A stretch of 54,734 nt of DNA from an archaeon (GCA_024276825.1 JAJRWI010000071.1:1-54734), one strand, 5' to 3'; shown: positions 27,823 through 46,627, numbered from the stretch's first letter. Made by a program: numbers and translations. The notes: generated from the letters alone by a model not told the origin.

Positions 27823-28166
27823 AGTACCAACTCGGTCTGGAACAATCGAATAATAGTTCTCTATTTTAGGCTTGTGTGTTTAGACGGGTCTAATTGAACC
27901 AAGATAATTTCTTGCAAAATGCCTCTAAAATCTGCAATTTAGCGGTTGTACATAAATGCGTAGAGCTTGAACAAAGTTGATCACTCATCAAATAAAGAAC
28001 TAATTAAAGGTCTGCAATCATGTGAGTTTATCAGATGTCTTGTAAGACTCACTTATGAGAAGTGCTCAGTGTCATTTTCTGGGCAACAAGACTCAAACAT
28101 TCAAGACGGTCCAATTAGAAATGAACGGCATCATTCGCACTCTTGAAAGGCATACACTTCTCAATT

Positions 28167-28679
28167 CTAGGATGTTCTCATCCGCAAATAGAGTCGCTTC
28201 TTACATGCTAAGGGTCCTGCGTGAAGAATCTCCATGCCAACGGGTTCATCTATGATTCCTTCAAGCATACCACAGAGATATCCATTTGTGAGGTAGCAGA
28301 TTGGTCCACCTTGCTCCAGGCCATGTTCTGCAACAGCAGTTCTAATTGGACATTCTCTGATTATCACATCATATGAGGGCTGTCCATATTCATCTATGTA
28401 GGAATAAGTATCAGTGTCTTTGTGAATGCGTAGCTCAATAGACCAGACATCTTCATAGGCTTTATTCAGTTCATGGATTGCCTGAAGTAAATTGTTTGTC
28501 TTGGGCATGTCTTCAGCAAGGATACGGCCTTCTTCAACGCCAATATTGAAAATGATTCCTTTTGCTGAAGGACCCAGCAAATGCTCGATTCCCTTGTTAA
28601 TAGTAGTTAGTAGAGCTAGATATTGCTCCATCTTTCGCTTTTCTCGGTCTGTTGAATGAAGCATAGTCTTTGAGAACAA
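28167..28679 (-). CDS. V4R-domain protein
   Basis: FNIGVEEG, ECPIR, PICYLTNGYLCGML, distal Cys. Confidence 0.72.
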   Translation of the reverse strand: MFSKTMLHSTDREKRKMEQYLALLTTINKGIEHLLGPSAKGIIFNIGVEEGRILAEDMPKTNNLLQAIHELNKAYEDVWSIELRIHKDTDTYSYIDEYGQPSYDVIIRECPIRTAVAEHGLEQGGPICYLTNGYLCGMLEGIIDEPVGMEILHAGPLACKKRLYLRMRTS

Positions 28680-28840: not shown

Positions 28841-29851
28841 ATGGCGAAAAAGATCTATGATACAATAATAATTGGCGGGGGACCCGCAGGCTGCTCTGCG
28901 GCACTTCACCTTGCATATCAGAAAAGAGATGTGCTTGTTCTTGATCGTGGAACATCGCCAATGCATTTTCACACGAACACAATTATGAACTTCGCTGGAG
29001 GATCAATGTATAATGAGGGACGAGCACTTCTTCGTCAGTTGAGTACAAACGCCAAAGCTGCAGGTGCCAAATTTCGAGCAGCCAATGTGACCAAGGTATT
29101 AGGCTCTTATCCTGAATTCATAATTCAAACCGAACCCAGTTATCGCACAAAAGACAAGTCAGTATATCGAGCAAGGACAATAATCTTTGCAACAGGAACT
29201 GCAAGAAAGCATCCGAGGGTTAATGGTAAATGGCGGTTATGGCTTCCAGTTGCCAATGTTGGCAATGGGGCATTTTATTGCCCTGATTGTGAGGCACCAC
29301 TCTGCCGTGGGAAGAGCGTATTGGTTATCAACACGGGTACCGTAGGCAGTGCTCTTCACATTGCTAATGCAGTCAGCAGGTTCACCAAGAAGATACACAT
29401 TCTAATGACCGAAGACGCCTACATCCCTATTGAAGAACAAGATCTTTCAAGACTTGACAATTCACCATTTTCATGGACGAGGGGAAAAATTAAGTCAATC
29501 TATTTTGGATTGCCAGGCAAAGTACAATCCGTTGAGCTCGAGTCTGGTAAGCGACTGAGAGCCAATGTGTTCTTTGTAGCATTTGTTGCAGAGCCTCGCT
29601 CAGAACTCGCTCAAATGATTGGCGTAGAGGTCGATGAACGCGGAAATATTATCACAGACAAGCGTGGAAAGACCAATGTTGAGGGTGTCTGGGCGGCCGG
29701 TGATGTGAGACCAATTACTCAACAGATTGCAATGGCTATTGGAACTGGAAACTATGCAGCATTGATGATCAACCAATTTCTTGGCAACAAGTATGAGGAG
29801 AAGGGTGAATTCGATCACCCTGAGATGCGAGAGATTCCATTCATGGAATAA
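28841..29851 (+). CDS. thioredoxin reductase-like FAD oxidoreductase
   Basis: GGGPAG, FATG, YCPDCE, GVWAAGD, QIAMAIGTG. The NAD(P)H-binding motif is atypical (NTGTVG). Confidence 0.82.
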   Translation: MAKKIYDTIIIGGGPAGCSAALHLAYQKRDVLVLDRGTSPMHFHTNTIMNFAGGSMYNEGRALLRQLSTNAKAAGAKFRAANVTKVLGSYPEFIIQTEPSYRTKDKSVYRARTIIFATGTARKHPRVNGKWRLWLPVANVGNGAFYCPDCEAPLCRGKSVLVINTGTVGSALHIANAVSRFTKKIHILMTEDAYIPIEEQDLSRLDNSPFSWTRGKIKSIYFGLPGKVQSVELESGKRLRANVFFVAFVAEPRSELAQMIGVEVDERGNIITDKRGKTNVEGVWAAGDVRPITQQIAMAIGTGNYAALMINQFLGNKYEEKGEFDHPEMREIPFME

Positions 29852-29885: not shown

Positions 29886-29917
29886 CTAATCAAGACAGGT
29901 CTTTCCAGATTTTAACC
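29886..29917 (-). pseudogene. displaced original 3' end of iorB (GLKSGKTCLD*)
   Basis: Joins in frame to iorB at the GGTT core when the element is removed and the segment re-inverted. Confidence 0.65.
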
Positions 29918-30101
29918 GTTCTTGTAAATTGGACATTCTTGGACATCTCAGTCCCGTCCGCCCAGGAACGGCACTGGGCACATTTCAGACTTTGATCTCT
30001 GATGAGACTATTTAGACCCCTCTCAATCTTGCTGTATATCATTAGATGTTCTTTTGATTGGTGTCCAACTCTGTCCTAGCTCTATGCATCTACGCGCAAC
30101 C
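29914..30101 (+). mobile_element. ~185 bp non-autonomous insertion element, copy 1
   Basis: Reverse complement of 46219-46407 with 3 substitutions and 1 indel. Bounded by AACC direct repeats; has subterminal GGACA-repeat inverted motifs. Confidence 0.88.
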
Positions 30102-30936
30102 CACAAGCATTTTGATATGGACAAAGATTGGCTATATAGCGATGATAACAGCTTTGGTTGGCTTTTTTGTGGCTCTTGAGAGGATACTCCCATACGAGAC
30201 GCGCAATGTTTTTGTCTATCTTTGTATTTTATCAATAATTGTCACCATTTTCATTCCATTCGAATTGATGACTTATATAGCACTTTTTGCAAGTGGCCTT
30301 ACTTTTGTTATTCTATTGCTGTTTTTCATGCATTACTTTCGAATTACATCTAGCGAGATAAAGTCAGCAATGCGTTTAATTCTTGTGGGATTCGTTATTG
30401 GTTTTATTGCGTACATTGGAAGAAGTGATCTCATCTATTCCTCACTTGGGCCTGAATTCTAAACAATTGCCGCTTTACTCCTAGTTGTTGGACTACTCAT
30501 CCTCGGAACTGCTGCATTCGGTGGACCTGCACTTGACGAACTTGACTGGGACAATCAGTTGTTAGAGCTCTATGTTATTCATAACAATGGTTTATTGCTT
30601 TATTATCACGCATTTGTGCATACTGTTAATTTGGATGAGCATCTAACAGCTGCAGGAATTGCGGGCATTCAGTCTCTCCTTCAAGAAATTATTCAATCAC
30701 CTAGTGGACTAAGCTCATTGTCTATTGGCGAGATCAATATTATGTTCGCTCATGGTGAATGCTTCACTGGAGTGTTAATCACAAAACGGGCCTATCGTGT
30801 ACTTTTGGCTAAAATTAAGGACTTTGTTGAACTATTTCAAATTGTGCTCGGTCCCGACATTTAAGATGTAGTTGCATCTGTAAAAGAACTCACAGGCACT
30901 GAAGAACTAGTAGATTTAATTTTCACAACTGAATAA
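30102..30936 (+). pseudogene. 3' part of a split 7TM-longin gene with two premature TAA stops
   Basis: One frame runs through TAA 30460-62 and TAA 30862-64 to TAA 30934-36. TM helices are followed by a longin-like domain (DEHLTAAGIAGIQSLLQE). The N-terminus is at 46404-46627(-). Confidence 0.85.
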
Positions 30937-31052
30937 TTCCAAGTCTACTTAATGGGTGAATTAATTTTTGCTGAACACGAATCAGTTTTATTTGTATCAC
31001 AAGATATACTTTGCAAGGTACTATTCATAAAAAAGAGGTCAGTGAACAATAA

Positions 31053-32123
31053 ATGACAATTGCTTCAACTATCATGTTTTTGGCATCACTTGCGGAATTA
31101 ATTGCATTCATAATTTCATTTAAGGGTTATATACAAAAACGATACCCTCATTTCAAATACATGTCTGTTATCTGGCTCTCCTTATTCATGAGTAACTTTG
31201 TTTTAGGCATAGCCTATGTGACTATGGACTCTTCATTATATCGTATTGGGATGATACTCTCTGCTCCAATAGGTTTTGCAATGATGGGACTTGTTGACAC
31301 TATATCTCAAGAAAAGATTAGATACGAGAGCCTATTCATCAACTCTGTGATATTGACATCGTTTTTCATATTCATCTTAGAAGCAGGCTCAGTTGTGCAA
31401 AACACCACAATACTTGGTGAAACAACACTCGCTCTCAGTGGAAATGCCATGATTGCTACAAGTATTGTATTTCTCTATGCAGGTCTCCTTTGGGTCTTTT
31501 TTATGGCCAAGATTCACATTCATGCTCCAAAGAGTATCAAGAAAATCTCTAAGATCAATCTAATGGGTGCAATAATTGCAGCACCTGGATCTATCGTTGC
31601 ATTTAGCACTGGATTCATCTGGATCTTTCCTGGTACCGACTTCTTACTAATTGGAATAGGTGGAATTGCATGTGCTTATTCATTCCACAAACAGCCTAAG
31701 CTTGGATATGTTCTGCCATTCAAGACCTATCGCTTGATCTGTGTAAACTCTATCAGCGGCACATCATTCTATAAATACGACTGGGACTCACGTGGCATTG
31801 TGGATGAAGCTCTGTTATCGGGAGCATTGCAAGGTATCAGCCTAATCTTAAAAGAGAGTATTCAGAAGGGCGAAATTCAAGAAATCAGATTTGATGAGGG
31901 TATTCTCATGTTTCATAGAATTCCTGAAAACAATATACTGTTTGCCCTCCTCGTGTCAAAACCCAGTTCGATACTTAAAGAAAGCCTTGAGCATTTTGGA
32001 ACTACATTTGTCAAACAATATCACAAAGTCATCGAAAGTGACCTTGTTGATCTTAACGAATTCGCTGATGCTGATTTCATTGTCGAAGCGACATTTCCGT
32101 ATGTTCCTCAATACAGCTCCTGA
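31053..32123 (+). CDS. 7TM membrane protein with C-terminal longin/roadblock-like domain
   Basis: About 7 TM segments, then LICVNSISGTSFYKYDW...DEALLSGALQGISLILKE...F...F. Confidence 0.75.
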   Translation: MTIASTIMFLASLAELIAFIISFKGYIQKRYPHFKYMSVIWLSLFMSNFVLGIAYVTMDSSLYRIGMILSAPIGFAMMGLVDTISQEKIRYESLFINSVILTSFFIFILEAGSVVQNTTILGETTLALSGNAMIATSIVFLYAGLLWVFFMAKIHIHAPKSIKKISKINLMGAIIAAPGSIVAFSTGFIWIFPGTDFLLIGIGGIACAYSFHKQPKLGYVLPFKTYRLICVNSISGTSFYKYDWDSRGIVDEALLSGALQGISLILKESIQKGEIQEIRFDEGILMFHRIPENNILFALLVSKPSSILKESLEHFGTTFVKQYHKVIESDLVDLNEFADADFIVEATFPYVPQYSS

Positions 32124-32256
32124 CTCGATACATTATGAATATGTATCCTTTGAAATATAGCTATACTCCAAACTACCATTATAGTGGTCCAATTATTCAT
32201 TAATATGAAAGCTGGATTAATGAGTGTCAATATGAATCAAATGCATTTGATATGGA

Positions 32257-33696
32257 GTGATATTAATGAGTGTCCACCGTGATGATAAAAGAGCCTTCGG
32301 TGAACACTTGACACCAATTCAAATATTTAAGAAATACATTCTGCCAAATATCAAAAGTCATTTGAAAAATTACGTCTGGGTCGATCTTTTTGCTGGTGAG
32401 GGAAACCTGATCCTGCCCATTCTTGAATTAATCCCAATGAAACAACGAGCATCATTCTTTGAAAGGCATATGTTTCTATTTGACACCCAGAAAAAACAGG
32501 TTGAACTAGCAATATCCAATGCAGTAAATCTTGGAGTTCCTACGGATGTGGCCAATAATAACATACAACAAAGAGACACACTACGTGATTACCCTGATTT
32601 TTTGTTAAGCCTCGATAAGCCAATTTTCCATATAACTAATCCCCCCTACCTATACATAGGATACATAGTGAAACATAAAAGAACTCAGAAATACTTGGAT
32701 TATTTTACTGGCTGTAATAAGGGATATCAAGATCTGTATCAACTTGCATTAATGAATGACCTCAGACATAATATTTGCAACATGATATACGTGATCCCCT
32801 CAAATTTTCTGTTTGGTTCTTCAGTATCCAATAAAATTCGTATGGACTTTCTCAAGCACTATTTGATTCAGAAAGCTGTAATCTTTGAACAACGTATTTT
32901 TGAACATACAGGTACAAATGTGATTATCTGTTTTTTTAAAAGGAAACAACAGCCAAGGCATGAGAGTTTAAGATTTGAAGGAGTAAAGATTAACAATGGC
33001 ACAATGAAGAAGATCTATACTCTTAATCCAAATAGCCATTATCGTACAGGTGACGAGTTTAATCAATTCATAAGAACGTTTCAAACAGAGAAACCACTGA
33101 GAGTCAAGTTTTATCTGACTACCGAAGAAATTGAAGCGAATAGGGGTGACCACGAGGTTGAGGTGATTGATGCCAATGCTTTCAATGGTAATCAATACAT
33201 GAAAATGACAATTCGAGTAAACAAGGAATTATGTGAGAAGATCAAAGCCAACCCACTCTTCATCAGGACAGTAGATACAGGTAGCGTACAAGGGAGGGTT
33301 GGGCTATATTGTGTTCAGGATGTATTTGGTGTTGATGGAATTTTAGTGACCAAAGCCAAATATAGAACTCATCCAATACAAGTGTTCATAGAACCAGACT
33401 TGAAGATTGATGATCTTGTCCTGCTGAGAGATTACTTCAACCTGTTATTAGAGCACTTTCGACAAGAAACTGATAGTGAATTCATGACCACTTACAAATA
33501 CTCAAACAGTAAATACACGAGGAAATTCTTTGGTCTCACACAAACAAGGAAATTGATTGAAACTTTTCCTATACTTAGCATCACCGATGATGAGCAGAAC
33601 CACCTTGTTCGTTTGATTCAAAAAAGAAATACTGATGAACTAATCCAGTTTGTTATGGCAATAAATGAAATAGGAAAACTGGACAATTGGATCTAA
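32257..33696 (+). CDS. amino (N6A/N4C) DNA methyltransferase, motif I before motif IV, orphan
   Basis: VDLFAGEG (motif I), TNPPY (motif IV), YQDLYQL, VIPSNFL, IFEHTGT. Confidence 0.85.
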   Translation: MILMSVHRDDKRAFGEHLTPIQIFKKYILPNIKSHLKNYVWVDLFAGEGNLILPILELIPMKQRASFFERHMFLFDTQKKQVELAISNAVNLGVPTDVANNNIQQRDTLRDYPDFLLSLDKPIFHITNPPYLYIGYIVKHKRTQKYLDYFTGCNKGYQDLYQLALMNDLRHNICNMIYVIPSNFLFGSSVSNKIRMDFLKHYLIQKAVIFEQRIFEHTGTNVIICFFKRKQQPRHESLRFEGVKINNGTMKKIYTLNPNSHYRTGDEFNQFIRTFQTEKPLRVKFYLTTEEIEANRGDHEVEVIDANAFNGNQYMKMTIRVNKELCEKIKANPLFIRTVDTGSVQGRVGLYCVQDVFGVDGILVTKAKYRTHPIQVFIEPDLKIDDLVLLRDYFNLLLEHFRQETDSEFMTTYKYSNSKYTRKFFGLTQTRKLIETFPILSITDDEQNHLVRLIQKRNTDELIQFVMAINEIGKLDNWI

Positions 33697-33850
33697 GAAA
33701 CACGCTATCTGTTATCACAAACATAAGAAACGCTGAAGCAGTGTCGGAATCAACAGATCTTATTCATGTCATTCAAACGAATAAGAATCAAATCAATTGC
33801 TTTGAACCGCATAGTATTAAACCTTCATTTAGAAAGTAATTCAGATTACC

Positions 33851-34378
33851 ATGAGGCCCCCAAATTATGCACTACTTTTCATGATAATACTTGCATGCAT
33901 CATTCCATCAATTGCTAAAGGTAATGACTTCCATCCGAATCAGTATGGTCTAGCACAAGATACTCTGAGACCAACAATAGAATATTGGAACATTAGTGTT
34001 TCTGTCTATCAAGGATTGGATTTTGAGGTTTCAGCATATATCTGGGATTCAGAGTCTGGGGTTGAGAATGCCACACTTCATATTCGAAATTCTACTTCAT
34101 TCGAATGGATATATGAAATGATATTCAATGGGTCTCATTACGTGACAGCAGTTCCTGCCCTACAACCTGGTGATGTTTATCGGCTACAAATTCTTGCCTT
34201 TGATAAGGCTGGTAATTCAGCAACCTCATATGTGCGAACAATTGACCTTTCACAAACAACTACATCCATTCCTGAATGGGCCACCTTTCCGATTGTAGTT
34301 TCATCAAGTCTGACCTTCATGCTTGTGATAATAATTATTGCATGGATCATCAAAAAAAGGCAATCAGAGGCTGACTAA
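33851..34378 (+). CDS. secreted Ig-like protein with C-terminal TM anchor
   Basis: Signal peptide, DSESGVENATL, AFDKAGN, TM and KKR tail. Confidence 0.7.
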   Translation: MRPPNYALLFMIILACIIPSIAKGNDFHPNQYGLAQDTLRPTIEYWNISVSVYQGLDFEVSAYIWDSESGVENATLHIRNSTSFEWIYEMIFNGSHYVTAVPALQPGDVYRLQILAFDKAGNSATSYVRTIDLSQTTTSIPEWATFPIVVSSSLTFMLVIIIIAWIIKKRQSEAD

Positions 34379-34483
34379 TTTTTGCTTTGAACCAAAGGAT
34401 TGTTGTAGAATGGCGCAATTTCTGGATGATTCATCCATTATAATTAAAATACTTGCGAAAATGAAAATGATGGAGATGCATGG

Positions 34484-37243
34484 ATGTTCAAGTATGCTCT
34501 GAAGCGAGTTATTCGTGGATACAAGCTCTTTCTTGCTCTGACTATTGGTGTTCTGGTTGCAACAACATTTGTTTCTAGTCTTGTTGCTTCCGCTGACATT
34601 CAAACTATGAGTATAATGAATGAGGCTCTTGATAGGTTCACCTATGATGCTCGCATTCAGGCAAACAATGTCACATGGAACAATCAAGAGTGGGATGATC
34701 TTCAGGCAATAATGGAAAATCTGACTGAAGTTGATAACCTTGACCGCTACTCTTCAGTGCCTTATATGGTCAATTCTACAAAATTTAATGTGTATGGGAT
34801 TGAGCGGGACAGCGCAGTGTGGGACTCTTTCAGCTTATTGAATGGGAGTAGCAGTCTCAATGCGAATGAGACTTATGTGATTGCAAGCTCAGTCAATGCC
34901 TCTCTATTCTCCATTAATGACATTATCGAAGTGCCAATCGTATTGAAGACGACGACACCACCCTTTTATTCGACAACCTATGTCAATCTCACAATTGCGG
35001 GATTTGTTGAAATTTCCGAATCTACGGCATACCTTTTGAATCCCCCACGATTTCTTGACTTTGGATTTATTCAGATAGAGATAGGGAACTGGAAAGACTA
35101 CAATCTTCTGGTCACTGATTGGGACCTGACATTTCGTCCCTTAATCGAGTATTATTCTAACCTAGACAATGTCACTGGCATGCAGATGTCAATGGGATAT
35201 CTTTGCCAGTTGAATAGAGACCTTCTGGTCAACCCTTATGATGTGGGTGGCACTGCAACAAATATTGCAGACGCTCTCTCAAAGATTGAGGATAGAACTT
35301 CTCTATACAACACTAAAATCACAAATCTAGTCGGTCCAACTCTATCACTCTTGACATTGACATCAGGTGTCTTGATTCTTGCCTATGTTGCTCTCTCTGT
35401 TCCAATAATATTCATGAGCTGGTACTCGTCCACAATGCTTAGTGAGGTCACTTACAACTTACGAAGACGCGAGTTTGGCCTTCTACAGACCAAGGGCTTT
35501 GGGCCAGGGGTCATTAAACGTATGTTGACGTTTGAGGGTGTGATTGTTGGAGTAATTGCTGGTGTGTCGGGACTACTCATTGGGACATATTTGGCCCATC
35601 TGATCGCTGGAGTATCAGCTGAAGTGCCTATGATGCTACTATCAACCAATTGGGGAAATGCAATTGCTGTTATCATATTTGGTGTGATACTATCAGTCTG
35701 GTCAGTGCGAGGTCCAGCAGACAGGGCCTCAAAATTAGAGCCTCTTGAATGTCTGAAGCAGTATATTCTCGTTGAAGAACAGAGAGAATATCGAAAACTT
35801 CTGCCACGAATTGCTCTTGTCCTTGGAACATACAAGCTGATTGTATGGCTGCTCGGCATAAATATGAATCTACTGATGGTATCAGCTTTGCGGACAAGTT
35901 TCATTCTGTTTATCGCAATGATGATTTGGAGCCCAATTGATGGATTCCTAAACTTTGCAGGCCCAATCTTGTTTCTGTACGGCATAACAAAAATTACAAT
36001 TCGTGGATCTGAGAGTTTTCAGGCAGCGATCATGCGTGCAGGACGCAGATTCTTCGGAGCCTTTGGAGTTCTTGCAACAAGAAATGTCAAACGCAATCCA
36101 TCACGTAATGCGGCACTGGTCTTTGTATTGTCGCTTATTGTTTCTTACGGCGTTTTCAGCGTTGGCGGTCTCTTCAGCGATCAAGATAGAATTGTGAGAA
36201 CCTTCTACTATGAGGTTGGGTCCGATGTTAGTGCTGTATTCTCAGCAGGTACAAACATGACAAGTGTCATCACAACCATTAATGGTATTGATGGGGTTAA
36301 TGAGGTCACAATTGAATATCAGACCACAATGAGCACAACGCGGGGTGCTTTACCTGTTCGAGGAATAGATGCGGAAGAATGGCAAAAGACGGCTTACTTT
36401 GAAGAGGACTGGTTCTCAGGGCAGTCATTCAATGACATGTTTGACAACTTCACTGGCGATGTCATCATTCTCTCGGTGTCAGTTGCTAGGGACCTTGAAC
36501 TCCGTGTTGGAAACAAGGTCACCGTGAGAAATCCTGTTAACAGTGAGGTATATCAGCTTGAGATAATCGGACTTGTTGGTTATGTGAGTCCTCTTGAGGA
36601 GTTTGTTGGACGATTTACTTTTACAGGTTCTTATCCCTCCTATGTTCCATTTGATTTTCTCAACAGAACAGGCATCACTGATGTTTCAGAAGCTCATGCC
36701 TTGATTAAGACAAGTCCTGGAGTCAACGGTACAGTAATAGAGGATGAGATCACCTCGCGGTTTCCCGATGTTCAGGACACCGACTCGGTCACCTCTCGAC
36801 TTGCTGAGGCCGAGGGGATATCTTATCAGGCTGCATCGATCAGGGCCCGATGGCTTGGCATAATTTTTGCTGGTGTACTTGCAATAATTGGTTCAGGACT
36901 TGTAGTGGCACTAACATTGAAAGAGAAAGAGTATGAAACTGTTCTTTTGGCTGTTCGTGGATTCACCAGAGGTCAGATTCTCAAGGTCCTCTTTGGTGAA
37001 GTCATGATTATGGTGCTCTTTGCAATGATTCTGGGAACTCTGACTGGATTCATTCAGCTATTCGGGGACCTAGCCAATACGAGTCAGAACCTGCAATCAT
37101 TAGTGAGACCTAGAATTGTAATGGACCCCATGTCTCTTCTGGGGATGATGTCACTCGTTATTTGCGTGTTTCTTTCATCCTTAATTCCAGTGCTTTTTGC
37201 ATCACGACTCTCTGAGGAGCGGATCAACATTCTTCGTGAGTAG
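34484..37243 (+). CDS. ABC exporter permease, tandem FtsX/MacB-type
   Basis: Two large extracellular domains with many N-x-S/T sequons, RRREFGLLQTKG and KEYETVLLAVRG FtsX motifs. Confidence 0.88.
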   Translation: MFKYALKRVIRGYKLFLALTIGVLVATTFVSSLVASADIQTMSIMNEALDRFTYDARIQANNVTWNNQEWDDLQAIMENLTEVDNLDRYSSVPYMVNSTKFNVYGIERDSAVWDSFSLLNGSSSLNANETYVIASSVNASLFSINDIIEVPIVLKTTTPPFYSTTYVNLTIAGFVEISESTAYLLNPPRFLDFGFIQIEIGNWKDYNLLVTDWDLTFRPLIEYYSNLDNVTGMQMSMGYLCQLNRDLLVNPYDVGGTATNIADALSKIEDRTSLYNTKITNLVGPTLSLLTLTSGVLILAYVALSVPIIFMSWYSSTMLSEVTYNLRRREFGLLQTKGFGPGVIKRMLTFEGVIVGVIAGVSGLLIGTYLAHLIAGVSAEVPMMLLSTNWGNAIAVIIFGVILSVWSVRGPADRASKLEPLECLKQYILVEEQREYRKLLPRIALVLGTYKLIVWLLGINMNLLMVSALRTSFILFIAMMIWSPIDGFLNFAGPILFLYGITKITIRGSESFQAAIMRAGRRFFGAFGVLATRNVKRNPSRNAALVFVLSLIVSYGVFSVGGLFSDQDRIVRTFYYEVGSDVSAVFSAGTNMTSVITTINGIDGVNEVTIEYQTTMSTTRGALPVRGIDAEEWQKTAYFEEDWFSGQSFNDMFDNFTGDVIILSVSVARDLELRVGNKVTVRNPVNSEVYQLEIIGLVGYVSPLEEFVGRFTFTGSYPSYVPFDFLNRTGITDVSEAHALIKTSPGVNGTVIEDEITSRFPDVQDTDSVTSRLAEAEGISYQAASIRARWLGIIFAGVLAIIGSGLVVALTLKEKEYETVLLAVRGFTRGQILKVLFGEVMIMVLFAMILGTLTGFIQLFGDLANTSQNLQSLVRPRIVMDPMSLLGMMSLVICVFLSSLIPVLFASRLSEERINILRE

Positions 37244-38137
37244 GTGAATAAAATGGTGAGTTATATCGAGACAAAAGATCTTGTGAAGATTTACAAACTT
37301 GGCAATGTTGAAGTTCAGGCCCTACGCGGCCTATCAATGAAGGTAGAGCAGGGAGAAGTCATCTCAATTGTTGGACCTTCTGGATCTGGAAAGACCACTC
37401 TGCTTAACATACTGGGCGGTCTTACAAAGGCAACCGCTGGCCGAACATGGATCGAGGGAAAAGAGATCACCAATGCCACACCGGGCCAATTAGGATATCT
37501 CAGACAGAGAATGGTCGGTCATGTGTTTCAGACCCTCAATCTGATACCTACACTCACTGCCTACGAGAATGTTGAACTTCCAATGCTTGCTATTAAGATG
37601 CCGGCATCTCAACGCAAGAAACGTGTGGAGGAACTATTGAATGCAGTAGGTCTTGAATTGCGTATGAAACACAAACCAGATGAACTGAGTGGGGGTGAAA
37701 AGCAACGTGTTGCCATTGCAGCTGCTCTGGCTAATGACCCTCCTATTCTGATATGTGATGAGCCTACTGGAGACCTTGATACAGACACTGGAGCGAAGAT
37801 CGTCCGCTTTTTGTTAGACATCAATAAAGAGATGGGCAAGACCATTATTATGGTGACTCACGATCCTGGAATAGCCCGTCTAACCGACCGAATCTATCGA
37901 ATCATGGATGGCAAAATAATCTCAATTCAAAAACCCAGTGAATCTGAAGAGTCTAATGTACAAATGATGGTCCAAATGTACAAAGACAGACTTGCTGAAA
38001 CCAATGCCGAACTTGAGGAGCTTCAAGTTTTGTTCAATGAGAAACGAATTAGTCCTGAACACTTTGCAGAACGCTGGCACAACCTGAAACAGACCAAGAA
38101 GTTTCTGGAACTTGAATTGCACAGGATGGGGTTCTGA
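37244..38137 (+). CDS. ABC transporter ATP-binding protein (LolD/MacB type)
   Basis: GPSGSGKTT, LSGGEKQRVAIA, DEPTGDLD, VTHD, C-terminal coiled-coil extension. Confidence 0.93.
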   Translation: MNKMVSYIETKDLVKIYKLGNVEVQALRGLSMKVEQGEVISIVGPSGSGKTTLLNILGGLTKATAGRTWIEGKEITNATPGQLGYLRQRMVGHVFQTLNLIPTLTAYENVELPMLAIKMPASQRKKRVEELLNAVGLELRMKHKPDELSGGEKQRVAIAAALANDPPILICDEPTGDLDTDTGAKIVRFLLDINKEMGKTIIMVTHDPGIARLTDRIYRIMDGKIISIQKPSESEESNVQMMVQMYKDRLAETNAELEELQVLFNEKRISPEHFAERWHNLKQTKKFLELELHRMGF

Positions 38138-38144
38138 TAGTCCA

Positions 38145-40103
38145 TTATTGACTATTGGTAATAATCTCTTTGAATAGGTTTCTTGCATCGATTGGTTGCA
38201 CGATGCCTTCACAACACTTCTCCAGTTCAGTTGTGTAGGTGGTTTCAAATTTCTCCAAAAACTGGCGCAGCTTTGTCCTTGCATCAAATGTGTCTTTGTC
38301 TGCTAATAATGCACAAGTCACATATCTTCCTTGCTCCAGCAAGACTGCAATGTCTTGGTGGATAATTGATTGCAACGCCCCTTTCGTGTCTTCCCTCAAT
38401 TCCTTAGTGAAAGATGAAACTGCTGTGATAAGTCCCGCCACAAGTGATGGGTCGCTAGTAATGCTTTTGTCAATGTAATCTGAAAACACCTCAATGCCTA
38501 TTTCTTTCATTATTGTGATTATTCCAAAGACCTTATACTCGATCTTTCTTGCCTTTGCTGTAGGGACTACAATCTGCTTGATGAATGACCGAAACCTTGA
38601 GATAATTGTTGGTCTTGATTCGACTTGAGAAAGCCCATCAATGGCTGTTGCCACTTTTTCACGCAATACATCCACTTGTGATTCATCACATAGTTTAAGG
38701 GCATTATCCAAATACTGATGTGCGGAATCCATGTCACCTTGAAACTTTGAAAGTTCAGCTCGTAATATGTAGACTTGTATCAACAGTGCTGCCAAGTCTT
38801 GCTCATCTGCAATCTGTTCAATCTGTGATAGAGTCCTGCTCACACTCAACAAGTACTCATCATCAGAACTTTCAAGTGAATAAGCAAGTTCTGCCTCTGC
38901 AAGGTTGAACAAGATCTGCAATATATGATAAATACTTCCAAGGCCCTCAACTAGCTTCAGTCCTTTTTTAAAGGCCAGAATCGCATCTTTATACCGCCCC
39001 CTCTCTTTGTTTAATATTCCTCGAACAAGATAATATCTGCCCTGTTCTTTCTTAGAACCTATCTCAAAGGCATATTGTCCTCCAGTTTCAAGATATTCAA
39101 ATGCATCATCATATTGTCCATTCAAGATCAGGGCGCGGGCCATCTCAATGAAAGGTGCTGGCATTTTGTCAGAAGATTTCTTTGCAATCTCAACAGACTG
39201 CTTTGCATACTCGAGTGCTTTCTCATTATCGCCAATGGCACCGTAAAGAATTGCTATGTTCATTAGTGGAGTTTGGAGCCCGATATCACTCTCCTCCCGA
39301 TTCTCGATCGACATTTTATAGTATCTAATAGCATTGTCATACTCACCAGTTGCAACATAATTAAAGCCTAGGTTGTTATATATGCTTGACCTTGTAATTT
39401 TTACTCCGAGGATCTTTTGTAAATCCAGCGCCCTTTGATTCAGCATGATTGATTCCTTGGGATCCTGCACTACAAGTGCCAGTGTCATTATCGCAACAAA
39501 TTGAATGACCATATCATTTGCTTTCACTGCGAGTTGCAAAGCTTCCTCAGCATCTTTTCGGGCATTATCATAGTCTTCAAGTTGATATCGAGTCAGTGCT
39601 CTATTTACAAGAACATTCATTCTAAATGGCTCCAACTCTGGGCTGGACTGACAGTATTTCAATGCCCTCTCAAAATCTTTCAATGACGAATTGCTCTCAG
39701 TTATAGCCCCCCTTAGGATTAACATCTCAATGGCAAGAGCTTCATCAAATGGGTCCTCAATGATCTTATCCAATACCTGCATTATTTCATCCTTGTCAAG
39801 AATCCGTTGAACATACCAGATTGCCCATGATAACCATGCCTGAATCTCCTTGTAACTTTCATATTTCGAACCAAGACGAAGGCCGCTATTGAAGTCTCTT
39901 GCTTGGAATATCATTCTCATTGAGAAGATTACAATGTCCTTAGATACTTCTGTCGAACACACATATTCAGTCAGTTTTTCGGAGAGATCACTTAGATTCT
40001 TTGCTTTTTCAATGAACTCCTTGATGATTCTTTGTGAACTCTCTGATAGAAATGGAAAATACTTCGAAAATGAAGAATACAACTCCATTATTGGAACGCC
40101 CAT
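38145..40103 (-). CDS. TPR protein with C-terminal longin-like domain
   Basis: TPRs (YNNLGFNYVATGEYDNAIRYY etc.) followed by DPSLVAGLITAVSSFTKE...FLEKFE. Confidence 0.82.
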   Translation of the reverse strand: MGVPIMELYSSFSKYFPFLSESSQRIIKEFIEKAKNLSDLSEKLTEYVCSTEVSKDIVIFSMRMIFQARDFNSGLRLGSKYESYKEIQAWLSWAIWYVQRILDKDEIMQVLDKIIEDPFDEALAIEMLILRGAITESNSSLKDFERALKYCQSSPELEPFRMNVLVNRALTRYQLEDYDNARKDAEEALQLAVKANDMVIQFVAIMTLALVVQDPKESIMLNQRALDLQKILGVKITRSSIYNNLGFNYVATGEYDNAIRYYKMSIENREESDIGLQTPLMNIAILYGAIGDNEKALEYAKQSVEIAKKSSDKMPAPFIEMARALILNGQYDDAFEYLETGGQYAFEIGSKKEQGRYYLVRGILNKERGRYKDAILAFKKGLKLVEGLGSIYHILQILFNLAEAELAYSLESSDDEYLLSVSRTLSQIEQIADEQDLAALLIQVYILRAELSKFQGDMDSAHQYLDNALKLCDESQVDVLREKVATAIDGLSQVESRPTIISRFRSFIKQIVVPTAKARKIEYKVFGIITIMKEIGIEVFSDYIDKSITSDPSLVAGLITAVSSFTKELREDTKGALQSIIHQDIAVLLEQGRYVTCALLADKDTFDARTKLRQFLEKFETTYTTELEKCCEGIVQPIDARNLFKEIITNSQ

Positions 40104-40178
40104 TCTTGTTTGATACTCATAAGGTCATAATACAAGTTAATATTTTTGTCCTTATATCCTGATATCAGTGAAAATTGT

Positions 40179-40961
40179 TCATGCCCGAGCTAACAAGGAC
40201 ATGATCTGTTTCTGATGTTTCTCTGTCAATTTCTTCAATGCGCTCTTTATTATCCATCGAGTGTTTTTTGATTGTCCCTGCTTGGCCCACTTGATTAAGA
40301 ACTCCGCGACTTCATTCTCGTTTGCTTTTGATATTTCACGAAGAATCCATGCAACTGCTTTCCTTACATCAGTTTCATCATCATCCATCACGAGCCCAAG
40401 AATCTCGAAGACCTTCCAAGTGACATTGAGTTTCTTATAGCATCTAAGAGTCACCACTCCAAATCGTCTGATCCACTTGTTCTCACTGCGAATCCAGCTC
40501 TCAGATAATGGGAGCACAAGGTCGTGGTTCTTCGAAGCAACTGGTTCAACTCCAAACATTGCAAGATTGTCACAAACTGCCCAGTTGTCAATACCATCAA
40601 CAATGGCCGAGATGATCTTCAATGTGATATCGGGAAACTTGGGGCCGAATCTCTCAAGGCTCTTACCAACAATTTGTCTTGACTCGAATGAACCTTCATT
40701 CCAGAGTGCAAAAAGCAGATCGGAGGTGAATTCTGGATATCTGAGGATGAACCTTCCAATCTCAGATGCAATGATTCTTAGAGTGGGAATTGAAACTCCA
40801 TAGCTCTTCTCCTTGTTGGGAATCACTCTGTCATAGTTTCGGCCTTTCTCATCTTTAGAAATGACTTGAAATAGGCCCTTGAATTTTCCAATGCATTGGG
40901 AATTATGTTTCACACATTCAAGAATATCATTCACACGAATCTTGATCTCTTTTCTGTCCAC
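40179..40961 (-). CDS. DNA alkylation repair protein (AlkD-like HEAT repeat)
   Basis: YGVSIPTLR, FESR, IDNWAVCD, WIRRFG, VRKAVAWILRE. Confidence 0.85.
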   Translation of the reverse strand: MDRKEIKIRVNDILECVKHNSQCIGKFKGLFQVISKDEKGRNYDRVIPNKEKSYGVSIPTLRIIASEIGRFILRYPEFTSDLLFALWNEGSFESRQIVGKSLERFGPKFPDITLKIISAIVDGIDNWAVCDNLAMFGVEPVASKNHDLVLPLSESWIRSENKWIRRFGVVTLRCYKKLNVTWKVFEILGLVMDDDETDVRKAVAWILREISKANENEVAEFLIKWAKQGQSKNTRWIIKSALKKLTEKHQKQIMSLLARA

Positions 40962-41230
40962 GCGAATCCCTCTTAGATTGAATTGCAGTTGTATTGCTAA
41001 TGAGTCTTGTTTCTTTTTCTATTTGAAAGGAAGTTGGCAATTAACAATACCATATTAATTGCATAACTTTACTATCCTAAATGATGGTTATACATCCTGC
41101 TGGTGCATTTAGTAATTGTGAACAACATTCTTGAATGATTGTGTTTGGATCTTGAAACAGAATAATCAAGTTGTCTTAAACTGCTTGAAAAGCAAAATAT
41201 TGACTATATATTCGATAAGGGGATATTTCA

Positions 41231-42115
41231 ATGAAACGACCATTGGTGTTTATTCATGGTGGAGCCACTCGATTCAAAGAAGAGTTTCACAATGATATCA
41301 TCAAAGCTGTTGAGAGGGCAGCAAAGATTGGTTTCTGTACGCTTGAAAGGGGTGGTTCTGGACTTGATGCTGCAGAGGCCGCAATTCGTTCTCTTGAAGC
41401 GACCACATTATTTACAGCTGGAAAAGGAGCTGAGCCTAATCTCATTGGTGATGTCGAACTAGACTCAATGATAATGGACGGCAATCGTTTAGAGAGTGGT
41501 GCGGTCATGGCAGTGAAAGGCATCACACATCCCATCTCTCTTGCTAGATATGTGCTAGAACGAACTCCTGTGATGCAGATTGCAGGCGATAGTGCAAGCT
41601 GGCTTTATAGGCAGATGATTGACGAGGGCTATCGCGATGAAGAATTCAGTGGTGATACAAAGGGCCCTTCAATCTCAGAGGGATGTGACACAGTTGGATG
41701 CATTGTTGTGGACAAGCTTGGAAGAATCACATCAGCGTCATCTACAAGCGGCTGGCGTGGAAAACTGCCCGGTAGAGTAGGTGACTCAGCGATAATCGGT
41801 GCGGGAGTGTATGCGAATGAGGTTGCAGGCGCATCATGCACTGGAAAGGGTGAACAGATTCTTCGCATTGTGATGGGAAGAATGGCAGTCTACTATGTGG
41901 AGGAGGGTTTCTCAGTTGTTGACTCATGTAACAAGATCATGAGGGTTTTGCGTGAGAAGACAACTGGTCAGGCCGGTCTTATAATGGCTGATAAGAATGG
42001 GAATGTTGGCCTTGGATTTGACACACCTCACATGCCCATAGCAATTGCGAATAATGGCAAGGTGATTTATTCATCCATGGCCCCTCACGACTTTGTTGAA
42101 GCACAGCCCATTTAG
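41231..42115 (+). CDS. isoaspartyl peptidase / L-asparaginase (Ntn hydrolase)
   Basis: IHGGA, ELDSMIMDG, D|TVG autocleavage site, STSG, GRVGDS, CTGKGE. Confidence 0.92.
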   Translation: MKRPLVFIHGGATRFKEEFHNDIIKAVERAAKIGFCTLERGGSGLDAAEAAIRSLEATTLFTAGKGAEPNLIGDVELDSMIMDGNRLESGAVMAVKGITHPISLARYVLERTPVMQIAGDSASWLYRQMIDEGYRDEEFSGDTKGPSISEGCDTVGCIVVDKLGRITSASSTSGWRGKLPGRVGDSAIIGAGVYANEVAGASCTGKGEQILRIVMGRMAVYYVEEGFSVVDSCNKIMRVLREKTTGQAGLIMADKNGNVGLGFDTPHMPIAIANNGKVIYSSMAPHDFVEAQPI

Positions 42116-42144
42116 ATGCAATAATAAGTATAGTTAGCTTCCAA

Positions 42145-42573
42145 TTGCTAGTGAACCATATGCCATCACGGATCTCAAGCAGAAGGAGTGTGGATATTGA
42201 ACAATGTCCAGTGTTCATTGCAGCACGAATTCTTGGTAAGAAATGGGCAATACTCATCCTTCAAGAAATGATGATGCCTGAGGCTGAAGATGGACTCCGA
42301 TTCAGTGAGATCCAGCGGCATTTAGACTGGATCACACCCAAAGTTCTCAGTAAGCGACTGAAAGAGCTTGTTTCTGAGGGCATTCTGAACAGACATGTAG
42401 ACTCCTCAGTCATCCCCCCACGAGTGACATACACATTGACCGATAAAGGCCTTGCATTGAAGGAGATCATCGTCCTAATGCAGCAGTGGGGAAAGAAACA
42501 TGGTGGGGATGCAGCATCTGCATGCTATGGAATGGACTTCACACATTGCCGAATATGCAGGCGATACTCATAA
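42145..42573 (+). CDS. HxlR-family wHTH regulator
   Basis: CPV..AARILGKKW, RFSEI, ITPKVLSKRLKEL, PPRVTYTLTDKG, Cys-rich tail. Confidence 0.88.
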   Translation: MLVNHMPSRISSRRSVDIEQCPVFIAARILGKKWAILILQEMMMPEAEDGLRFSEIQRHLDWITPKVLSKRLKELVSEGILNRHVDSSVIPPRVTYTLTDKGLALKEIIVLMQQWGKKHGGDAASACYGMDFTHCRICRRYS

Positions 42574-43095
42574 CTATGAGTTCTGCTGAACTGCAGCATG
42601 CTGCTCTATTAAGAACAGAATTTCTTCCTCTATTGTTGGTTTTATCCTGGGCTTTGTCTTGATTCTCGCTATCTCCTCACCAGAATTTCTATCGAATATG
42701 AGAATTGTCGGACTGCTTGTTATCCCGAATATGTCTACTTCCTTTGGACTGGGTGGGACTGCCCAATGAACGCCATGACGGGCTCTAGGACCAGGTTTCT
42801 TCATTCCACCTAACGCTCTGATTCTAATTCCCAATCGTTCCTCAAGCAATGCTAGAACAGGAACAGCATTTCTGGCATCTCCACACCAGTCAGCAAACAG
42901 GACAACAATCTCATATTGCTCCCTATAGTTCTGAAGTTTTTCTATCACATCGCTCTTTAACTGGTAATTCTCTTTGACCTTCATAAAGGCATGCTTGTAA
43001 ATCCTGCCCATTTGTTCAATATATTCGCTACATGTTGCGCAATCTTCTGAAACATCCATTAGTTTGGGCATATCATTCTCCTCTCTCATCAACAT
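42574..43095 (-). CDS. thioredoxin-family protein (WCGD type)
   Basis: FADWCGDA, SPTILIFD..GEEIAR. Start is probably MPKL after GAGGAG. Confidence 0.78.
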   Translation of the reverse strand: MLMREENDMPKLMDVSEDCATCSEYIEQMGRIYKHAFMKVKENYQLKSDVIEKLQNYREQYEIVVLFADWCGDARNAVPVLALLEERLGIRIRALGGMKKPGPRARHGVHWAVPPSPKEVDIFGITSSPTILIFDRNSGEEIARIKTKPRIKPTIEEEILFLIEQHAAVQQNS

Positions 43096-43574
43096 ACAAT
43101 ATCGTTTCCTCTTTGTGCTTTCTGTCTTTGTAATGGTGCTGTCTTGATCATTGTAATGACCTCTCGAAGTCCTGAGTCATGTCTTTTCTCATCATCCTTT
43201 AGACGTTGAAAAATGGCCTTTGCGAGTGGGTCTTCCAATTCGTGTAATGCCTGCGAAAGAAGTTCTATCATTTCACCCTCCTTTGCTAATACAGACTTCA
43301 GAATATTCTCGAGCTTGATTCTGTCAATGTATCGTTGTACTTTTGCACTCCAAGAATCGCAAGGTGTAGTGCTTATGATTTCAAGCATTCCTTGCAAGAG
43401 ATTTTTATGCCTCCATGTGTCCAACCTCAATTCCATCAGGATGAGCCTTACAGCGGGCTCAGATACACTCTCTTCTGCTAGCGAGAGCTCATTTAGGGTT
43501 TCTTCCTCAACCTCGATTTGTCTTTCGATTATTGCGATCAACTTCTCATTTTTATCAGACATGATTCTAACCAA
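43089..43574 (-). CDS. ferritin-like / rubrerythrin-like four-helix protein
   Basis: QIEVEEE, DTWRH, KEGEM, DDEKRHD di-metal-like motifs. Confidence 0.65.
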   Translation of the reverse strand: MVRIMSDKNEKLIAIIERQIEVEEETLNELSLAEESVSEPAVRLILMELRLDTWRHKNLLQGMLEIISTTPCDSWSAKVQRYIDRIKLENILKSVLAKEGEMIELLSQALHELEDPLAKAIFQRLKDDEKRHDSGLREVITMIKTAPLQRQKAQRGNDIVC

Positions 43575-43715
43575 GACTCTTAACTATAATTAAGTTATTA
43601 AGGATATTTATTCGGCAAAAATGGGGGCCACTCAAAAACTGGTAAAAATGATTAGTGCCAAAACAAAGCCTTATGTTGAACAATGGTCAATGATATGTAA
43701 TATAGGTGTGAGAGA

Positions 43716-45620
43716 ATGACTATTGGTGATGTTGCAAGGAAGGAATCAGGCAAGGCTCTATTACTTTCCAATGAAGCAATAGTTCGTGGTGCCTTAGAGG
43801 CTGATGTGAAAGTAGTAGCGTTCTATCCAGGCTCACCAGTTTCTGAGATCATGGACACATTTGAGTTGTTGCTTGATGATTTCGATCTAAAAATGGAGAT
43901 ATCCATTAATGAGAAGGTCGCATTGGAAACAGTGGCTGGAGCTTCAATGGCTGGAGTACGGGCCTTCACAGCCATGAAGAGTGTGGGAATGAATGTCGCG
44001 AGTGACTCAATGTTTAGCATTGCTTACACGGGTGTCAATGCTGGATGTGTGTGCCTGATTGCGGATGACCCATACGCTCACTCTTCACAATCTGAACAGG
44101 ATGGCCGCTACTTTGGCGAGGCGGCCTATGTTCCAATGATGGAACCTGCAAACCCTCAAGAAGCCAAAGAGATGCTAAAATCTGCCTTTGAAATCTCTGA
44201 GAAATATAGGACACTTGTTATTGTAAGGACAACAACCAGAGTCAATCATCAACGTGGAATTGTAGAACTTGACCCTCTGAACAGGACTTCTTTCAAGAAG
44301 AATCGATGGAATGATGTGCGAGGACAATACTTTACCGTGGGACCAGTTGCAAGAATGCTAAAGAGGAAGTTATTGGAGAAAAACACGGCAATCAAAAGGG
44401 AGTTTGAAAATTGTCCGTTTAATTTCATTAAGGACGGTGACGGCCGCATAGGAATAATCACTGCTGGAGTCTGCTATTCACATACTCTCGAGGCGCTTCG
44501 TAATCTTAAGATAGATCTTCCAATCTTAAAGATTGGAACAATCTATCCGTTACCAGAAAAGATGATTGTTAACTTTCTCAGAGGGCTGGACAGAGTGATT
44601 ATCATTGAAGAACTGTCCCCATATCTTGAAACACGGATAGCTGCAATCTCCAAGTATGCAAGTCCATCTGTTGGAATCTATGGGAAGAAGAGCGGCCATT
44701 TCTCCGAGATGCTCGAATACAATGTGCCTATTGTCGAAAAGGTCATTGCCACCGTTATGAGAATGAACCCTTCAATAGATTATGATGCCATTCTTGAGCG
44801 GGCACGAAAGCTAAAAGAGTCATTGCCTGAGAGAGCACCGATATTCTGTCCCGGCTGCCCTCATAGGGGAACATTCTGGGCATTGCGGCAGGCGCTGACA
44901 AAGCTGAAACTGTGTGATAAAGATGGAAATGTAAAGTTTGTGTTCAACAATGACATTGGTTGCTATAGCATGGCGTTTCTGCCTCCGAACAATTTCAGTG
45001 ACTCTATGCTGGCGATGGGTGCATCGCTTGGAATCTCTGCAGGAATGAACCTTGTACTCGAAGACAAGATTATTGCAATGATTGGTGACAGTACTATGTA
45101 TCATGCATCATTGCCTGGGATAGTCAATCTCATTCATCACAATTCAAATGTCACACTCTTTGTTCTTGATAATTCGGTCACTGCAATGACAGGGCAGCAG
45201 TTCAATCCAAACTCGCCCTATGATGCTGGTGGCAGGGCCGCAAGGAAGATCAACATGGAAAAGTTGTTTGAAGCACTGGGTGCTGACAGTGTGAGCGTAA
45301 TAGATCCATATAACACACGCGATTGCATCCAGCCAATTGCTGATGCTATCGAGCGAGATGGGTTCAATGTGGTGATCTCAAGGCGCGAGTGTGCATTATA
45401 TGGCGATCGGCTAAAAAAGAGAGCGGGCAAGAGGATAGTCCCATCTGTGAATGACCCTGAGATCTGCCGTAATATATACGCATGCGTGAAAGAGTTCTAT
45501 TGTCCTGCAATAATGGTCGATGAATCTACTGGCAAGATGGTAATCCTGAGAGACCTCTGTGATGGCTGTCTGGAGTGTAGACAAGTTTGCCCTGTTGACG
45601 CCCCACGAAGAGGAGAGTGA
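43716..45620 (+). CDS. iorA: indolepyruvate:ferredoxin oxidoreductase alpha subunit
   Basis: NEAIVRGA, YPGSP, NEKVALE, SSQSEQD, FCPGCPHR, DIGCY, GDST, DNSVTAMTG, C-terminal ferredoxin. Confidence 0.95.
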   Translation: MTIGDVARKESGKALLLSNEAIVRGALEADVKVVAFYPGSPVSEIMDTFELLLDDFDLKMEISINEKVALETVAGASMAGVRAFTAMKSVGMNVASDSMFSIAYTGVNAGCVCLIADDPYAHSSQSEQDGRYFGEAAYVPMMEPANPQEAKEMLKSAFEISEKYRTLVIVRTTTRVNHQRGIVELDPLNRTSFKKNRWNDVRGQYFTVGPVARMLKRKLLEKNTAIKREFENCPFNFIKDGDGRIGIITAGVCYSHTLEALRNLKIDLPILKIGTIYPLPEKMIVNFLRGLDRVIIIEELSPYLETRIAAISKYASPSVGIYGKKSGHFSEMLEYNVPIVEKVIATVMRMNPSIDYDAILERARKLKESLPERAPIFCPGCPHRGTFWALRQALTKLKLCDKDGNVKFVFNNDIGCYSMAFLPPNNFSDSMLAMGASLGISAGMNLVLEDKIIAMIGDSTMYHASLPGIVNLIHHNSNVTLFVLDNSVTAMTGQQFNPNSPYDAGGRAARKINMEKLFEALGADSVSVIDPYNTRDCIQPIADAIERDGFNVVISRRECALYGDRLKKRAGKRIVPSVNDPEICRNIYACVKEFYCPAIMVDESTGKMVILRDLCDGCLECRQVCPVDAPRRGE

Positions 45621-45623
45621 TGG

Positions 45624-46238
45624 ATGATGACGAAAACATACAACATCATTTTTTGCGGAGTTGGCGGACAAGGTCTGATGCTGCTATCTGCAATTCTGAG
45701 TAAAGCGGCAATCAATGCTGGGCTGAATGTTATCACTGGTGAACAGCACGGTCTCTCACAAAGGCAAGGTTCAATCTATGTTCACTTTAGAATTGGTGAT
45801 GTTATCTCGCCACTGATCCCATATGGAACTGCTGACATGATGATTGCAATGGAAGCCACTGAAACTTTACGATACATCGAATATCTAAAGGACGATGGCG
45901 TAATAATCATGAGCAATCGGATAATGCATTCTGTCATTGAAACTGAGCAGGTCGCTCTTGATAAGACAGGTGCTACAAAATATCTCACTGTTGATGATAT
46001 TGTTGTAAAACTGAATGAGGTCACCAGACGTGTTATCCTTCTTGATTCTTTGGAACTCGCCAATAAGGCAGGCAACCCACTAACTGAAAACTCCGTTCTC
46101 ATTGGTGCTGCCCTTGCATCTGAGGACTTTCCAATTCCAGAGGATGCTATCAAGAACGCCATTCGTGAATTGGTCCCAAAGAAGACAATAGATGCAAATC
46201 TAGAAGCATTCAGACTTGGGTTGCGCGTAGATGCATAG
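45624..46238 (+). CDS. iorB: indolepyruvate:ferredoxin oxidoreductase beta subunit (last residues supplied by the inserted element)
   Basis: GVGGQG, EQHGLSQRQGS, NSVLIGA, NLEAFRLG. The terminal RVDA* is encoded within element copy 2. Confidence 0.93.
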   Translation: MMTKTYNIIFCGVGGQGLMLLSAILSKAAINAGLNVITGEQHGLSQRQGSIYVHFRIGDVISPLIPYGTADMMIAMEATETLRYIEYLKDDGVIIMSNRIMHSVIETEQVALDKTGATKYLTVDDIVVKLNEVTRRVILLDSLELANKAGNPLTENSVLIGAALASEDFPIPEDAIKNAIRELVPKKTIDANLEAFRLGLRVDA

Positions 46239-46407
46239 AGCTAGGACAGAGTTGGAGACCAATCAAAAGAACATCTAATGATATACAGCAAGATTGAGAG
46301 GGGTCTAAATAGTCTCATCAGAGATCAAAGTCTGAAACGTGCCCAGTGCTGTTCCTGGGCGGACGGGACTGAGATGTCCAAGAATGTCCAATTTACAATG
46401 AACGGTT
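46219..46407 (-). mobile_element. ~185 bp non-autonomous insertion element, copy 2 (inverted)
   Basis: Near-identical reverse complement of 29914-30101; bounded by GGTT (AACC on the minus strand) at both ends. Confidence 0.88.
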
Positions 46408-46627
46408 CAGTGAAATAGAAATCAGCCATGATAAATGAGAACGAATTCATCGCCATGCCAAACATGAACACAGCCCATGCAAGTCTGAAATCCACAATTT
46501 TTCTTATAGAGCTTCGAAACCATTGACCGATGAAGAGTGCGACAAACAGGAGTGAATACAAAATCACTCCAGAATCCAGGATCAGGATTATATCACTAGT
46601 CAGACTTGGCGTGTCTAGAATTGGCAT
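46404..46627 (-). pseudogene. 5' fragment (~75 codons) of the split 7TM-longin gene
   Basis: Two TM helices ending ...ADFYFTEP at the element core; continues in frame with TSILIWTK at 30103. Confidence 0.82.

Follow-up and report, generated by a model that had tools for sequence, protein, structure and literature searches.

How do the two parts of each of two genes come to lie 16 kb apart, with each gene divided between the same two copies of one short element? This question is raised by a 54,734-nt stretch of DNA (GCA_024276825.1 JAJRWI010000071.1; this whole stretch is hereafter called the window) from an uncultured Asgard archaeon of the Thorarchaeota, a group of organisms whose genome dynamics are known almost only through metagenome assemblies. 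The assembly in question is likewise of the metagenome type, consisting of 82 contigs (2.94 Mb, 98.3% complete) and not closed. The genes are iorB and a gene referred to here as 7TM/longin-like, and the element copies at which both are divided are termed M1 and M2. The answer that is probably correct is that two insertions were followed by host homologous recombination between the inserted copies, which inverted the 16.1-kb block that they enclose. An earlier note on this DNA had claimed that a block between inverted copies of a mobile element was flipped, splitting two genes reciprocally, and both the orthologue alignments and the gene order of related genomes bear this claim out.

The inverted block (30102-46218, 16.1 kb) is bounded by M1 (29914-30101, + strand, with AACC included at both ends; 29918-30101 for the element proper) and by M2 (46219-46407, - strand), which runs opposite to M1 and shares 98.4% identity with it. 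Counted with one core, the element measures 184-185 nt (29918-30101 and 46219-46403). A search for inverted repeats of at least 40 nt between positions 28000 and 48500 returned this pair as the only one, with arms of 182 nt each (29922-30103 and 46217-46398) that are 98% complementary and separated by 16113 nt. When M1 and M2 were aligned together with 30-50 nt of their flanks, they were found to differ by one 1-nt indel and three substitutions, exactly as previously noted, with 80 nt as their longest exact common run. In this alignment the similarity drops off sharply at AACC on both sides, such that two inverted copies of one element stand exactly at both breakpoints and their likeness ends at the gene junctions. 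The motif AACC had been proposed as the core of the element; whereas similarity does stop there, what was called the core is really the GG crossover dinucleotide plus TT, and the TT is a chance sharing between the left end of the element and both of its targets.

The first of the divided genes is iorB. Its body (45624-46238, + strand), which carries a Pfam POR match, comprises 199 native codons up to position 46220, enters M2 after ...AFRLG and then ends after five codons within the element (LRVDA*). The detached 3' end of the gene directly abuts the other copy, M1, and reads LKSGKTCLD* (29886-29917, - strand). When the body (to 46220) is continued by the reverse complement of 29886-29917, the protein reads ...AFRLGLKSGKTCLD*, and ten iorB orthologues (61-74% identity) terminate in ...AFELGLKAGASCLRE*, ...AFDLGLEAGGTCLGT* or similar. 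Since the nine detached codons match these conserved C-termini, they represent the true end of iorB, and the reconstruction of this gene across the junction is confirmed.

The second gene, 7TM/longin-like, is divided in the same manner, with an N-part of 74 codons that abuts M2 (46404-46627, - strand) and a C-part that abuts M1 (30100-30936, + strand). Joining the N-part (46408-46627, minus strand) to the sequence from 30098 onward, with one copy of the core, yields a single tblastn segment that spans residues 1-328 and is gapless at the junction (61.6% identity to the homologue from the same genus and 48-54% to others). Specifically, the two parts meet without gap or overlap when compared with six homologues, in one of which the residues DFYFTEPT across the junction are identical. 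It is this collinearity with orthologues that decides, and not the preservation of the reading frame, because arbitrary coding flanks join in frame in one third of cases. A genome-wide search for further element-mediated rearrangements, based on open frames across joined flanks, was uninformative for the same reason.

The homologues of the 7TM/longin-like gene are 352-354 aa long, and the length of about 352 codons that had been reported for the joined gene is reached only if two in-frame TAA codons in the C-part are read through. The first (30460-30462) stands in place of a conserved Tyr, the second (30862-30864) at a position held by Glu or Asn in the homologues; past the second, the frame goes on to a homologue-like C-terminus. 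These codons are most readily read as pseudogene decay and not as recoding, and because of them the gene is a decaying pseudogene. The idea that flipping the block restores two genes is thus correct as far as the reconstructions are concerned, but each gene would keep its element and the 7TM/longin-like gene its two nonsense codons. As for the nature of the protein, a structure model of the intact homologue from the same genus (mean predicted local distance difference test score, pLDDT, of 72) places an alpha/beta domain behind about seven membrane helices. The best PDB matches of the model are weak (E 2e-3 to 4e-2) and comprise longin/roadblock proteins for the C-terminal domain (AP sigma and mu subunits, Mon1-Ccz1, MglB and Ragulator) as well as rhodopsins and G protein-coupled receptors for the helical part, while a Pfam search of the gene gave no match. 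The designation "7TM-longin" is therefore plausible from the matches of the homologue's model, but with matches this weak and no Pfam hit it is not firm.

In agreement with the divided genes, the order of genes in related genomes points to a single inversion between M1 and M2. The comparison, an approach that the earlier note had suggested, included six genomes of the same family (one of them of the same genus and in a single contig) and eight metagenome contigs, i.e., about 14 loci. The order common to them (numbers denoting genes by position and signs their strand) is 22320(-) [25250(-) 27173(-)] iorA(+) iorB(+) reductase(+) 43089(+) 42574(+) 42145(-) 41231(-) 37244(-) 34484(-). The window instead shows 27173(-), reductase(+), iorB tail(-), M1, 7TM C-part ... 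34484(+) 37244(+) 41231(+) 42145(+) 42574(-) 43089(-), iorA(+), iorB body(+), M2 and 7TM N-part(-). Relative to the left flank, the conserved gene block at 33851-43574 thus runs the other way round in about 14 related loci, and this reversal is what an inversion between M1 and M2 predicts. Furthermore, in an adjacency analysis the two junctions bounded by the element closed into a 2-cycle of their own, which therefore corresponds to one inversion, independent of any other change in the region. The remaining differences in order constitute a 3-cycle at the junctions 27173-iorA, iorB-reductase and reductase-43089. These additional junctions are located in unique sequence and are therefore real regardless of how the repeats were assembled.

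The genes carried by the inverted block are, besides the 7TM C-part, a 7TM paralogue, an N6 DNA methylase, ABC transporter genes, a TPR protein, an alkylation-repair protein, an asparaginase, a thioredoxin-like and a rubrerythrin-like protein, iorA (the alpha subunit of an indolepyruvate/2-oxoacid:ferredoxin oxidoreductase; 43716-45620, + strand) and the iorB body. Two of them, the distant 7TM paralogue (19% identity to the homologues) and the N6 DNA methylase, lie in a low-GC stretch (31053-33696, 35-38%) that none of the related loci examined contains; this stretch may have been acquired as an island. The reductase, a pyridine-nucleotide disulfide oxidoreductase of the thioredoxin-reductase-like type (28841-29851, + strand), lies to the left of the block; in the relatives it is found directly downstream of iorB and co-directional with it. 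Additionally, a third copy of the element family, M0 (27944-28126, - strand), which is about 72% similar to M1 and M2, is located at the synteny breakpoint between 27173 and the reductase, next to an accessory gene (28167-28679, - strand). This accessory gene was found in 2 of 15 same-family genomes searched and in 4 of 25 relatives overall, at another locus.

What kind of element, then, provided the repeats? M1 and M2 are not a chance repeat, as the host genome contains 42-51 BLAST matches to the element and about 48 hits for each of its end motifs, mostly 179-187 nt apart. A 20-mer from the element end is present in several Candidatus Thorarchaeota genomes, and it is this occurrence by which the host lineage is recognised. 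The link to IS607 comes from a relative of 567 bp (C81:166260-166827) that shares the element's ends and keeps remnants of both IS607 genes, tnpA and tnpB. Specifically, the relative encodes the N-half of an IS607-family transposase beside its ...GCGCAACC end (NF033518, E 1e-22, below the curated cut-off as only the N-half is retained), in which a MerR-type helix-turn-helix (HTH) is followed by YARVSS, and a TnpB C-terminal zinc-ribbon (PF07282) that runs into the GTTCATTG... end. In line with this origin, members of the IS607 family have GG termini and GG in their targets, produce no target duplication and lack terminal inverted repeats (PMC6188088), traits that match those of the element studied here. 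It ends in AACC, is devoid of terminal inverted repeats and has asymmetric ends, each with two TTGGACA units. In the flanks of 30 copies, the base at -1 is C in 29, that at -2 in 24 and that at +1 in 26, and no matching target-site duplication was found in them; likewise, both empty sites, that of M1 and that of M2, reconstruct with a single GG. Written in the IS607 orientation, this corresponds to a (G)GG-T target with GG at both junctions. M1 reads from the right end (RE) to the left end (LE) on the + strand and hence lies on the minus strand in the LE-to-RE convention of IS607. As judged from these features, the element is a gene-less, non-autonomous IS607-family derivative present in about 50 copies.

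An autonomous IS607 partner was not found, as the 98%-complete, unclosed assembly gave no PF00239 (resolvase-type) match, nor was a Y1 or tyrosine recombinase gene detected in it. Since no recombinase gene was detected, the family is without a visible transposase source in the host genome, and its copies are probably immobile at present. The absence of PF00589 (tyrosine recombinase) matches from the assembly was also observed against 14 control genomes, all 14 of which contain the domain; possibly a XerA-type enzyme has diverged beyond detection or is missing from the assembled sequence.

Other origins and roles of the element were considered and rejected. An element of 1.7 kb that shares the ends of the family (C81:172801-174510, equivalent to L100:2802-4511), on the same contig as the 567-bp relative, contains the genome's only IS110 transposase gene and was thus a candidate parent. 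However, one side of it is collinear with positions 1-146 of the short element and its other side with the final ~34 nt, which identifies it as a copy of the mini-transposon interrupted by IS110 in the subterminal repeat region. An IS200/IS605 (Y1) origin was discarded, as a Y1 transposase was not detected and the tnpA remnant belongs to the IS607 type. A bridge-RNA or guide role was likewise not supported, given that no target conservation extends beyond (G)GG-T and that no convincing global fold emerged when all copies were submitted to RNAalifold. The window was also scanned for Rfam families and tRNAs, with no matches. On a local scale, all element copies contain a conserved hairpin with the loop GAACGGCA (e.g., at 29957-29976 and 46344-46363), the stem of which varies from copy to copy in a compensatory manner (CCAG/CTGG, CCAC/GTGG and CCTG/CAGG). 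This hairpin overlaps the last tnpB codons in the 567-bp relative; it may be the remnant of a TnpB guide-RNA scaffold or a transposase-binding structure.

Taken together with the family's traits, the arrangement can be explained as follows. Two ~185-bp non-autonomous IS607-family copies would have arrived by separate insertions at GG sites, one of them nine codons before the iorB stop and the other after codon 74 of the 7TM/longin-like gene. The inserted copies would have been oppositely oriented and 16 kb apart, and host homologous recombination of the RadA type across ~185 nt of 98.4% identity would then have inverted the 16.1 kb between them, with the outcome that each copy became flanked by one half of each gene. 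Such a length is not prohibitive, as archaeal inversions between inverted segments that share only 104 bp have been documented (PMC5495485). That recombination and not a transposase carried out the exchange, and that the contig represents the real chromosome, we infer from the considerations below. The final structure, which can be written as a-M-c' ... b'-M'-d, is identical for recombination between two insertions and for intramolecular self-copying of one element, both of which the earlier note had proposed as routes. Host recombination is favored because IS607 moves conservatively, by means of a serine recombinase and without target duplication (PMC6188088), and because no such enzyme was found in the assembly; the same two facts disfavor the intramolecular transposition route.

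Three points weigh against two insertions followed by host recombination as a full account of the locus. First, homologous recombination and recombinase exchange at equivalent positions cannot be told apart from the sequence alone. Second, the orientation of the block depends on one contig of a metagenome-type assembly. Third, undoing the inversion gives the order 27173(-), reductase(+), iorB(-), iorA(-), 43089(+), which is still two steps away from the ancestral order, iorA-iorB-reductase with all three genes co-directional, as found in the related loci. The convergence of iorB with the reductase that had been described for the restored order is hence right for the immediate precursor, but synteny shows that it was not the ancestral arrangement. 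The two remaining steps could be two inversions, or iorAB could have been excised and put back the other way round.

The second of these points opens the way to the alternative that survives best, namely that the inversion is an assembly artefact and that the chromosome has the un-inverted arrangement, with one simple insertion in each gene (iorB::element and 7TM::element), wrong exits having been joined at the repeat. The 82-contig metagenome-type assembly, the 98.4% identity of copies that are longer than a typical short read, and the fact that the un-inverted order is one step nearer to that of the relatives all speak for such an error. Moreover, no independent assembly was found for a cross-check: neither the iorB::element fusion nor the reductase gave a match in exact-protein look-ups, a scan of public metagenome contigs for iorB returned relatives only (75% identity at most, which is that of the closest one), and sequence from the same species was thus not found in the collections searched. 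However, the copies carry four private differences and share an identical run of at most 80 nt, such that reads of at least 100 nt or k-mers above 80 should link the flanks correctly. In addition, a contig normally ends at a repeat that the assembler fails to resolve instead of being inverted there, the same assembly passes through dozens of other copies of the element, and the neighboring junctions in unique sequence prove that real rearrangements took place in the region. An artefact is therefore considered unlikely.

Less plausible still is the broader proposal that this 20-kb region is a hotspot of IS607-derived reshuffling in which M1 and M2 may continue to flip, perhaps with the help of a serine transposase provided in trans. 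The region does contain three element copies and lies three rearrangement steps away from the order kept in about 14 relatives, and if this reading were true, gene-less IS607 derivatives would be active drivers of Asgard genome architecture; nevertheless, it is given little credence here.

It is similarly improbable, and marginally more so, that a since-lost IS607 serine transposase made the inversion directly, either through strand exchange between the two copies or by generating the second copy and the inversion in one event. In favor of this possibility, M1 and M2 are each other's nearest relatives (98.4%, compared with 93-97% to other family copies), and subunit rotation in a paired-end complex would yield an intramolecular inversion (PMC6188088). 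The mutual closeness of the two copies fits recent insertion from one source as well as recombinational homogenisation, and does not discriminate between them. On the other hand, an exchange that joins the LE of one copy to the RE of the other would fail to preserve two complete copies, each with one half of each gene at its sides, the conservative movement of IS607 without target duplication argues against the second copy arising in the event, and only an N-terminal remnant of the family's transposase gene is present in the assembly. Finally, a programmed segment that toggles expression as a phase-variation switch, as could be imagined from the bounding inverted repeats and from the suggestion of the earlier note that flipping might continue, is hardly credible, because either orientation keeps the element in both genes and the same truncated products, with the same five foreign codons in iorB, while the 7TM/longin-like gene contains two further nonsense codons, the repeats belong to a transposon family of about 50 copies and no gene of an invertase or integrase family was found in the window or in the genome.

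Insertion of two element copies followed by host recombination thus places this locus among rearrangements of an ordinary and well-documented type, the new instance being an inversion bounded by transposon copies in an Asgard archaeon. No function is obvious for this inversion, and it reveals neither a new mechanism nor a regulatory switch. Its value is that it documents, at nucleotide resolution, an inversion bounded by a mobile element in the genome of an uncultured Asgard archaeon, in which a family of about 50 gene-less IS607 derivatives both inactivates genes and supplies substrates for rearrangement. Additionally, the locus marks a place at which assemblies of this lineage merit checking with long reads.

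Several known systems resemble the one described here to different degrees. Invertons of the Hin/Gin and Fim types also consist of a segment between inverted repeats with two possible orientations; in contrast, the present segment shows no recombinase gene and no promoter or gene-fusion logic, its 16-kb cargo consists of unrelated housekeeping genes, and its repeats stem from a dispersed transposon family. As regards the element itself, IS607, IS1535, ISC1926 and their non-autonomous derivatives (PMC6188088) share with it the lack of terminal inverted repeats and of target duplications, the GG junctions and the preference for (G)GG targets. Short repeated motifs within both ends are a further common trait of the family (here TTGGACA, twice per end), and the longer relative in this genome keeps the N-half of the MerR-HTH/serine transposase and the C-terminal end of TnpB; the copies examined here differ in being gene-less, with an intact family transposase not found in the assembly. 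At the level of the rearrangement, inversions between insertion sequences (IS) or miniature inverted-repeat transposable elements (MITE), such as the Lactococcus lactis IS case cited in PMC5495485, share the inverted copies at the breakpoints and the reciprocal flanks. They differ in that ~185-bp gene-less elements in an uncultured Asgard host, and not full IS copies, are involved here, and in that the present event is reconstructed from one assembly and synteny instead of being seen directly. These inversions and those between paralogous inverted segments in Thermococcus nautili (PMC5495485) further resemble the present one in doing without a dedicated invertase, and the comparison with T. 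nautili places the length of the M1-M2 repeats within the range that recombines in archaea.

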